Part shown: one piece after another, positions 3,186 through 3,658 of the stretch
How the letters are laid out: each line of letters opens with the position of its first letter
Numbering within the stretch: position 1 is the first letter of the stretch
Made by a program: the position numbers and the translations under genes
Origin: Escherichia coli
Lineage (GTDB): Bacteria; Pseudomonadota; Gammaproteobacteria; Enterobacterales; Enterobacteriaceae
Assembly: GCF_003334815.1 (NCBI RefSeq)
Contig: NZ_QOWO01000081.1
Strand: one strand, 5' to 3'
DNA: 3,658 bases
Notes under the pieces: generated by a model
The model's database searches: none
What the model saw: the letters and a program-made list of their open reading frames with translations, nothing else
Told to the model about the DNA's origin: nothing

Positions 3186-3364
3186 AGATATGCACCTCCC
3201 ACCGCAAGCGGCGGGCCCCGACCGGAGCCACTTTAGTTACAACACACGAAAACAGCCTCCAGAAAAACCCCGGTCCAGCGCAGAACTGAAACCACAAAGC
3301 CCCTCCCTCATAACTGAAAAGCGGCCCCGCCCCGGCCCTTCGGGCCGGAACAGAGTCGCTTTTA

Positions 3365-3387
3365 ATTATGAATGTTGTAACTAAACA
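3365..3387. promoter_or_regulatory. Ter-like replication terminus site (Tus-binding); core GAATGTTGTAACTAA
   Basis: 3370-3384 matches the Ter core consensus GNATGTTGTAAYKAA at every position, including the conserved G at position 6. Ter sites flanking the origin are known in R1/R100-type plasmids. Confidence 0.55.
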
Positions 3388-3658
3388 TCATCATCGCTGT
3401 CAGTCTTCTGGCTGGAAGTCCTCAGTACACGCTCGTAAGCGGCCCTCACGGCCCGCTAACGCGGAGATACGCCCCGACTTCGGGTAAACCCTCGTCGGGA
3501 CCACTCCGACCGCGCACAGAAGCTCTCTCATGGCTGAAAGCGGGTATGGTCTGGCAGGGCTGGGGATGGGTAAGGTGAAATCTATCAATCCGTACCGGCT
3601 TACGCCGGGCTTCGGCGGTTTTACTCCGGTATCACATGTAACCACAGCGTGCCGCCTT

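Follow-up and report, generated by a model that had tools for sequence, protein, structure and literature searches.

In the IncFII plasmid R1, two Ter sites, terRL and terRR, lie between oriR and the start of the leading strand; the counter-clockwise fork is stopped almost at once by terRL, while the clockwise fork circles the plasmid and stops at terRR (2023 review). These sites correspond to the ter inverted repeats of the repA4 region of NR1/R100 (Hill 1988; Jiang 1993; Krabbe 1997). The repA4 region of pEC958 also contains ter sites and, as found by transposon mutagenesis, is needed for plasmid maintenance (pEC958 paper). Without Tus/Ter, R1 is unstable, forming multimers and replicating by the rolling-circle mode.

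E. coli primase starts at a CTG on its template, and single-strand initiation (ssi) activity of the plasmid G-site type needs only SSB, DnaG and Pol III. R1 and R100 are said to carry such G sites, and three blocks, A, B and C, are reportedly conserved among plasmid G sites. The leading strand of R1/R100 reportedly begins some 380-400 bp past oriR, near the 3' end of repA4. Two ssi signals are reported for the mini-R1 plasmid pSY343 (Bahk 1988), and eleven are reported for F, R6K, R100 and ColE2 (Nomura 1991).

Here we analyze the corresponding DNA of an E. coli replicon contained in a stretch of 3,658 nucleotides (the window), in which a first-pass annotation had outlined a GC-rich, hairpin-dense, non-coding region at 3190-3658. 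We conclude that this is the already known repA4 region of R1/R100/NR1, comprising a Ter pair and the leading-strand start, and, with a probability of about 0.85, that it functions as cis-acting, non-coding replication DNA of an R1/R100/NR1-type IncFII replicon, built from the Ter pair and folded priming signals. Our own analysis shows the sequence identity of the Ter pair, how its members point and how well they are conserved, that the folds are real and which strand they favour, and that coding constraint is lacking.

Results

The replicon and its relatives

The region lies directly downstream of repA1 and oriR, with the CopA/CopB/Tap control region upstream, as is characteristic of an IncFII repA4 region. 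The features that define this setting are as follows.

830-985: sok RNA (Rfam match, 83.8 bits)
1408-1656: CopB/RepA2-type regulator, an 82-amino-acid (aa) ORF
1794-1885, minus strand: CopA RNA (Rfam)
1958-2827: RepA1, a 289-aa ORF whose counterpart in CP056948 is annotated as IncFII RepA
3003-3011: DnaA box TTATCCACA, read in the sequence
about 3095-3160: AT-rich stretch that marks oriR together with the DnaA box

oriR occupies about 2992-3186, and the region starts directly after it. The window is 99.8 % identical to the plasmid CP056948, while R100 is 92 % identical over 1271-3658 and 95.1 % identical over 3190-3658, which confirms the earlier suggestion of a repA4 region downstream of an IncFII origin; the description of this DNA as GC-rich holds as well (GC content 0.55-0.60 over 3200-3600). 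Elsewhere in the window, a 49-aa ORF at 975-1124, upstream of copB, adjoins the sok match and resembles a Hok-type toxin. Just after a 102-aa ORF (388-696), a GC hairpin followed by a T-run at 720-765 is probably the terminator of that ORF, and the weak Rfam microRNA matches at this position are spurious.

At least 5000 PLSDB plasmids carry the 3190-3658 stretch at 90-99 % identity. It is contained in 4153 of 5426 complete E. coli genomes, where it is almost always plasmid-borne, and 54 chromosomal places match it. Annotation over the stretch in the matching records is mostly empty or reads 'hypothetical protein', and no Rfam family covers any of it at E values up to 1.

The set used for comparison had 30 members: the window, lengthened from CP056948; R100; and 28 further loci reached by way of RepA1, one genome per species. 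The divergent relatives are RepA-anchored loci from species genomes (RepA 73-99 % identical) and come from Klebsiella, Lelliottia, Pantoea, Erwinia, Yersinia (Y. pestis), Citrobacter, Hafnia, Mixta, Izhakiella and other genera.

Two inverted Ter sites adjoin the origin

The sequence GTTGTAACTA has just two exact matches, inverted relative to each other, at 3234-3243 (minus strand) and 3374-3383 (plus strand), where chance would give 0.15. Both belong to 23-bp sites that the first-pass annotation had missed.

3230-3252, minus strand: TerL, equivalent to terRL of R1, TTTTCGTGTGTTGTAACTAAAGT read from 3252 down to 3230
3365-3387, plus strand: TerR, equivalent to terRR of R1, ATTATGAATGTTGTAACTAAACA

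The reference for comparison was MG1655 TerB, read directly upstream of tus (AATAAGTATGTTGTAACTAAAGT). The core of a Ter site consists of position 6, a G-C pair, and positions 8-18 of the 23 bp (PMC8347550). TerR is identical to TerB at all 12 core positions; TerL matches at 11 of the 12 (A8 to G) and at 18 of the 23 positions overall, including G6 and 9-23. Counted from the repA stop, both cores (with at most one mismatch) keep almost the same distance in 27 of the 30 RepA-homologous loci, and G6 is kept across the RepA-anchored loci while the spacers around the sites diverge. The two sites thus have both the core sequence of a Tus-binding Ter site and a conservation independent of their flanks, and as putative Tus-binding sites they are the best-defined functional elements of the region.

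TerB on the MG1655 plus strand arrests the clockwise fork, which moves toward higher coordinates. The blocking end of a Ter site is the end near C6 (PMC8347550). From the strand and arrest direction of TerB together with the block at the C6 end, it is the fork meeting position 1 first that is blocked, and TerR would therefore stop rightward forks and TerL leftward forks. The pair is accordingly predicted, from the TerB/tus geometry, to form a convergent trap about 130 bp wide, and the polarity of its two sites agrees with the published roles of terRL and terRR.

The layout is that of R1/R100, in which two inverted Ter sites, oriented by the same logic, separate oriR from the point where the leading strand begins; the R100 sites occupy homologous positions (45073-45095 and 45208-45230 of our R100 locus, L002); small differences are found in the outer, variable Ter positions. 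The E. coli chromosomal fork trap (TerA-J) also employs a 23-bp site with the same core (G6 and 8-18), polar arrest and a convergent layout. In contrast to the chromosomal trap, the plasmid trap is only about 130 bp across and sits beside the origin instead of opposite it, where it would enforce unidirectional replication and a defined end point.

A further occurrence of the Ter core 8-mer, in minus orientation, is found in GGTTGTAACC at 3037-3046, within the RepA-binding part of oriR. About 20 of the 30 loci have it conserved, roughly +216 to +221 relative to the repA stop. With G6 and T18/A19 missing, it is unlikely to be a Tus site.

Small hairpins and a CRISPR protospacer at the left edge

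Two hairpins flank the boundary between oriR and the region.

3166-3186: hairpin of nine unbroken base pairs, TGTCTGTCC tgt GGACAGACA, at the right end of oriR
3198-3215, minus strand: small GC hairpin CCCACCGC aa GCGGCGGG, fully paired only on this strand, through a G.T pair

The hairpin at 3166-3186 folds better than all 200 of its shuffles (z = -3.5, 0/200 as good) and is highly conserved across genera in the 30 loci. That at 3198-3215 is not significant by energy alone in the shuffle test, and it shows a compensatory change from C-G to T-A in most of the divergent loci. It also lies inside a CRISPR protospacer: a 32-nt spacer identical to 3199-3230, which lies between oriR and TerL, is present in a type I-E CRISPR array on the chromosome of E. 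coli 18KM2445 (NZ_CP151004.1; locus L040, 405-436). AAG, the canonical I-E PAM, precedes the protospacer on the crRNA-sense strand, that is, the minus strand of the window; given this PAM and the sequence identity, the spacer was acquired from an IncFII replicon.

Over 2800-3400 the plus strand has a strongly negative GC skew (-0.25 to -0.33) and a positive AT skew, which makes the minus strand rich in G and T all the way from the repA1 end across oriR to TerR. In most 100-nt windows across the same interval the minus strand folds slightly better.

The repA4 frame is not under coding constraint

The open frame that gives the region its name is present in shortened form.

3190-3384, plus strand: truncated 'repA4' pseudo-ORF of 64 codons, against 128 in R100

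Its TAA stop at 3382-3384 is formed by TerR positions 18-20, a difference from R100, in which repA4 runs on to roughly window position 3576. The 64-aa frame, an 81-aa ORF on the minus strand and a 46-aa ORF from 3530 exist as strings, and it may be asked whether the region encodes RepA4 or another small protein needed for stable inheritance. Although the 128-aa ORF of R100 is annotated as repA4 in many records, and some records annotate a 46-aa hypothetical protein from 3530, the repA4 ATG is missing in 22 of the 30 sequences, the frame ends after 0-61 codons in divergent loci, and repA4 is also split in pEntH10407. The 46-aa and minus-strand ORFs are similarly unconserved among the 30 replicons, with starts mostly absent and frames that break early. 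Indels that are not multiples of three are frequent across the homologues, PGAP calls no gene in this region of R100, and conservation peaks at the Ter cores and the stems with no codon pattern. Transposon insertions in 'repA4' do destabilise pEC958; all the same, we regard a protein product as extremely improbable. A protein-coding repA4 was consequently rejected, having neither a conserved start nor a conserved frame nor codon-wise conservation. The earlier judgment that the region holds no convincing ORF is therefore correct, given the loss of the ATG, the early frame ends, the indels, the lack of a PGAP call and the split in pEntH10407, and it extends to all 30 related replicons, none of whose ORFs here is conserved.

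Module 1 is a nearly invariant element of minus-strand polarity

Right of TerR, conservation is concentrated in two structured elements, which we term modules 1 and 2. The first comprises the following parts.

3426-3520, minus strand: module 1, a nearly invariant structured element of 95 nt
3438-3457: hairpin of module 1
3473-3499: hairpin of module 1 with an inner stem at 3482-3491
3462-3466 paired with 3504-3508: enclosing helix of module 1

In the conservation profile, module 1 is the most conserved DNA downstream of repA, ranking above the Ter sites. Folded over 3415-3525, the minus strand reaches -28.6 kcal/mol (z = -4.2) versus -19.9 kcal/mol for the plus strand (z = -1.2), and when 3426-3520 is taken by itself the minus strand folds better in all 29 homologues. 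Of the 29 pairs in the consensus structure nine have changed on both sides (0/500 shuffles), and 98.6 % of cells are paired. The G.T cells are asymmetric: 39 read G.T on the minus strand, where the plus strand would have A.C, versus 4 the other way. The fold energies, covariation and G.T asymmetry therefore identify module 1 as a structured single strand of minus polarity, and it is probably a second single-strand signal with the same polarity as module 2.

Covariation and minus-strand G.T pairs, read as G.U, would fit an RNA as well as single-stranded DNA, so that 3426-3520 could in principle be a small structured RNA transcribed leftward, in the minus sense. Membership of a known RNA family was rejected, as module 1 has no Rfam match at E values up to 1; a promoter scan of the minus strand found no sigma-70-like site right of module 1, and the element lies in a stretch known to become single-stranded at initiation. 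An RNA is therefore a very unlikely reading, and we treat module 1 as a DNA signal in what follows.

A partial copy of module 1 occurs in F (locus L038, 40689-40766), about 3 kb from the RepFIB initiator gene, and its first 28 nt are nearly identical to those of R100. This copy is almost unchanged in about 360 plasmids of a narrow lineage, and no Ter sites were found near it. It is probably a remnant that says nothing about function.

Module 2 is a candidate primase G site

The second element extends past the end of the window.

3546-3658, continuing to about 3685, minus strand: module 2, candidate primase G site
3547-3558: conserved block of module 2
3595-3608: hairpin A of module 2
3614-3618 paired with 3652-3656: long-range stem of module 2
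past the window end: hairpin C of module 2
3555-3557, minus strand (CAG on the plus strand): predicted primase start, the CTG inside CCTG, 370 bp right of the oriR edge

Module 2 is moderately conserved over about 3546-3685, and beyond this point all similarity stops in the conservation profile; as the conserved block reaches about 3685 in CP056948, the window ends inside module 2. The fold has a z of -2.8. Run with a profile of module 2, nhmmer gave two more hits (E values of 4e-6 and 7e-6), which adjoin oriT in R100 (L002, 4806-4940) and in F (L039, 15395-15530) and lie between a DUF932 gene and an SLT transglycosylase gene. The replicon and oriT copies have in common TGGTCTGGCAGG (3547-3558), hairpin A with GGCTTCGGC (3595-3616), and GCCTTCCATGCCGC-loop-GCGGCAT, which forms hairpin C, while the spacer between the second and third of these blocks is not conserved. 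All 18 aligned copies carry CCTG on the minus strand, while on the plus strand the CTG at 3551-3553 gives way to CTTTG, CTTAG, CTAGC and others.

Loop lengths differ between the copies, and the compensatory variants of hairpin A and the long-range stem were read directly from the sequences. Hairpin A occurs in three compensatory versions (CCGGC/GCCGG, CCCGC/GCGGG and GCGGC/GCCGC), the long-range stem covaries (GGCGG/CCGCC, GGCGCC/GGCGCC, GGTGCC/GGCACC and GGCCA/TGGCC), and so does hairpin C. Module 2 thus presents a template-strand CTG with hairpin A, the long-range stem and hairpin C 5' of it, the arrangement of a G site, and a start at the complement of 3555-3557 would therefore set the leading strand off rightward from A3556.

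Because the CCTG is invariant, the oriT copies retain the same blocks and the position is close to the reported start, we consider it somewhat probable that the G site lies in module 2; the choice of module 2 over module 1 would follow from the logic of conservation and from the reported position of the start. The earlier proposal of ssi signals of the primase G-site type in the region is supported to this extent by the CCTG, the shared blocks and the covarying stems. Two observations count against placing the G site here: folding energy shows no strand asymmetry, and in the oriT-adjacent copy of F hairpin A is a variant whose bases can pair on the plus strand alone. Both oriT-adjacent copies, in R100 and in F, are oriented with the minus-strand sequence on the transferred strand, as deduced for F from the direction of the leading-region genes and the established direction of F transfer. 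The oriT-adjacent copies in R100 and F are plausibly priming signals for complementary-strand synthesis after conjugation.

The rival placement takes 3426-3520 as the G site, with a primer laid down from a minus-strand TACTG 3' of the stem-loop and with module 2 as a different signal. It would follow the model of phage G4, where CTACTG stands immediately 3' of stem-loop I at the primer start, and it draws on the extreme conservation, clear minus-strand polarity and covariation of module 1 as well as on the two ssi signals reported for mini-R1 pSY343. The TACTG just 3' of module 1 (complement of 3423-3427) is nevertheless restricted to E. coli-type copies, most of the divergent loci having ACTC or other sequence in its place; a primer start beside module 1 was rejected on this ground, and the G-site call was therefore moved to module 2. 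Module 1 is also missing from the oriT-adjacent copies in F and R100, which keep module 2, and is only about 240 bp from the oriR edge. We judge module 1 unlikely to be the G site and retain module 2 as the candidate.

Module 2 resembles the phage G4 origin and the G sites of R1/R100 in being a structured single strand with stem-loops 5' of a template CTG, and it may resemble plasmid G sites further in its three conserved blocks with a variable spacer and in its related copies beside oriT in F and R100. In primary sequence, BLAST and local alignment of the region against the G4 origin gave no significant match. A shared 9-mer, CGGAGATAC, is on the plus strand, the wrong one, and at chance level, and a G4-type complementary-strand origin by homology was rejected. 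Any likeness to G4 would be functional at most.

The hairpin between the Ter sites and a probably fortuitous stem in module 2

Two stems had been singled out in the first-pass annotation, CCGGCCC ttc GGGCCGG at 3332-3348 and CGCCG ggctt CGGCG followed by GTTTT at 3603-3622. Both are present at these positions, and neither is the core of a G site; the first lies between the Ter sites and the second overlaps hairpin A.

3317-3363, between the Ter sites: two-helix hairpin with an outer helix AAAAGCG/CGCTTTT and the inner helix 3332-3348
3603-3622, plus strand: second stem with GTTTT, a competing pairing that shares bases with hairpin A and with the long-range stem

Taken alone, the stem at 3332-3348 has a z of -2.4, with 3 of 200 shuffles folding as well, while the larger hairpin, folded within 3300-3375 as single-stranded DNA, has a z of -4.8 (0/200 as good). 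Across 24 distinct homologues of 3317-3363, 96 % of cells are paired and four pairs are changed on both sides (17 cells); no shuffle of 500 reaches the covariation score, and sliding the partner destroys the pairing. The loop is free to vary (TTC, GAA, AAA, GGA, AGA), and the A-tract and T-tract that flank the hairpin are conserved. This first hairpin, conserved with compensatory changes, is a real structure.

The stem at 3603-3617 is no better than chance (z = -1.5, 14/200 as good). Compensatory changes are absent from it, and a C.C mismatch breaks it in precisely those three copies in which hairpin A shows covariation. One of its arms is part of hairpin A and the other of the long-range stem, and the GTTTT tail is not conserved, being replaced by CCAC, CCAT or similar in other genera. 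The segment 3603-3622 is probably not a functional unit.

These contrasting results bear on whether the hairpins are transcription terminators, with 3317-3363 a bidirectional intrinsic terminator insulating oriR and the Ter sites and 3603-3622 a weak one; a weak terminator was among the possible roles offered in the first-pass annotation. The succession of A-tract, GC-rich covarying hairpin and T-tract at 3317-3363, conserved throughout, is what such an element would look like, but the terminator scan does not call it, only four T follow the stem and these are part of the outer helix, and a scan of both strands found no promoter-like site within the region. At 3603-3622 a lax terminator scan returns a hit; that candidate was nonetheless rejected, as an intrinsic terminator combines a GC stem with a conserved U-run, whereas here the T-run is not conserved and the stem, without covariation of its own, is broken where the alternative hairpin covaries. 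Overall we find terminators a rather unlikely account of the two hairpins, worth retaining as a possibility for the first: 3317-3363 may halt transcription in both directions, or may form as a fold of single-stranded DNA.

Discussion

A proposed path for initiation and termination

The elements described above suggest the following path, in which the binding of Tus, the arrest of forks, the dependence on primase and the precise point of the start are taken from the literature or from position. RepA would open oriR, and the helicase would move right from it. The minus strand, which is the template of the leading strand, would then stay single-stranded between oriR and about 3556 and fold, allowing DnaG to prime at the conserved CTG of the G site (complement of 3555-3557) and the leading strand to run rightward from about A3556. 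Any leftward synthesis, heading toward oriR and repA, would be stopped at TerL, and the single rightward fork would end its round at TerR after a full trip around the plasmid. By this arrangement the Ter trap would prevent over-replication and rolling-circle run-on.

One feature counts against this simple model, namely that TerR (3365-3387), as oriented, should also face the helicase moving from oriR to 3556. The review of R1 gives no account of how initiation passes an origin-facing TerR (2023 review). At initiation, either Tus occupancy or arrest would be incomplete at TerR, or something in the region would help.

Module 1 is the only element for which we found no described function, and even so it may be one of the two published ssi signals. 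The two modules are distinct structures that share one polarity and follow oriR, an arrangement that would fit the 'two ssi signals' reported for pSY343, and the ssi signals of pSY343/R100 may correspond to 3426-3520 and 3546-3685. That module 1 is instead a separate, functionally undescribed single-stranded-DNA signal between TerR and the leading-strand start, and not the G site, appears distinctly doubtful. A possible role for module 1 is helicase or primosome loading or restart, letting initiation proceed though TerR faces the origin; another possibility is that it serves as a protective fold of a gap that stays single-stranded for the whole replication round.

Implications for IncF plasmids

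The region is functionally important but belongs to textbook plasmid biology, and current understanding of these replicons is unchanged by our analysis. In E. coli and Klebsiella it is chiefly IncF plasmids that carry the genes for resistance and virulence, and the stretch analyzed here is found in about three quarters of complete E. coli genomes. Because automatic annotation leaves this stretch blank or calls spurious small proteins in it, correct labels, namely for the Ter pair, the conserved hairpin, the priming signals and the repA4 pseudo-ORF, improve the annotation of the replicon.
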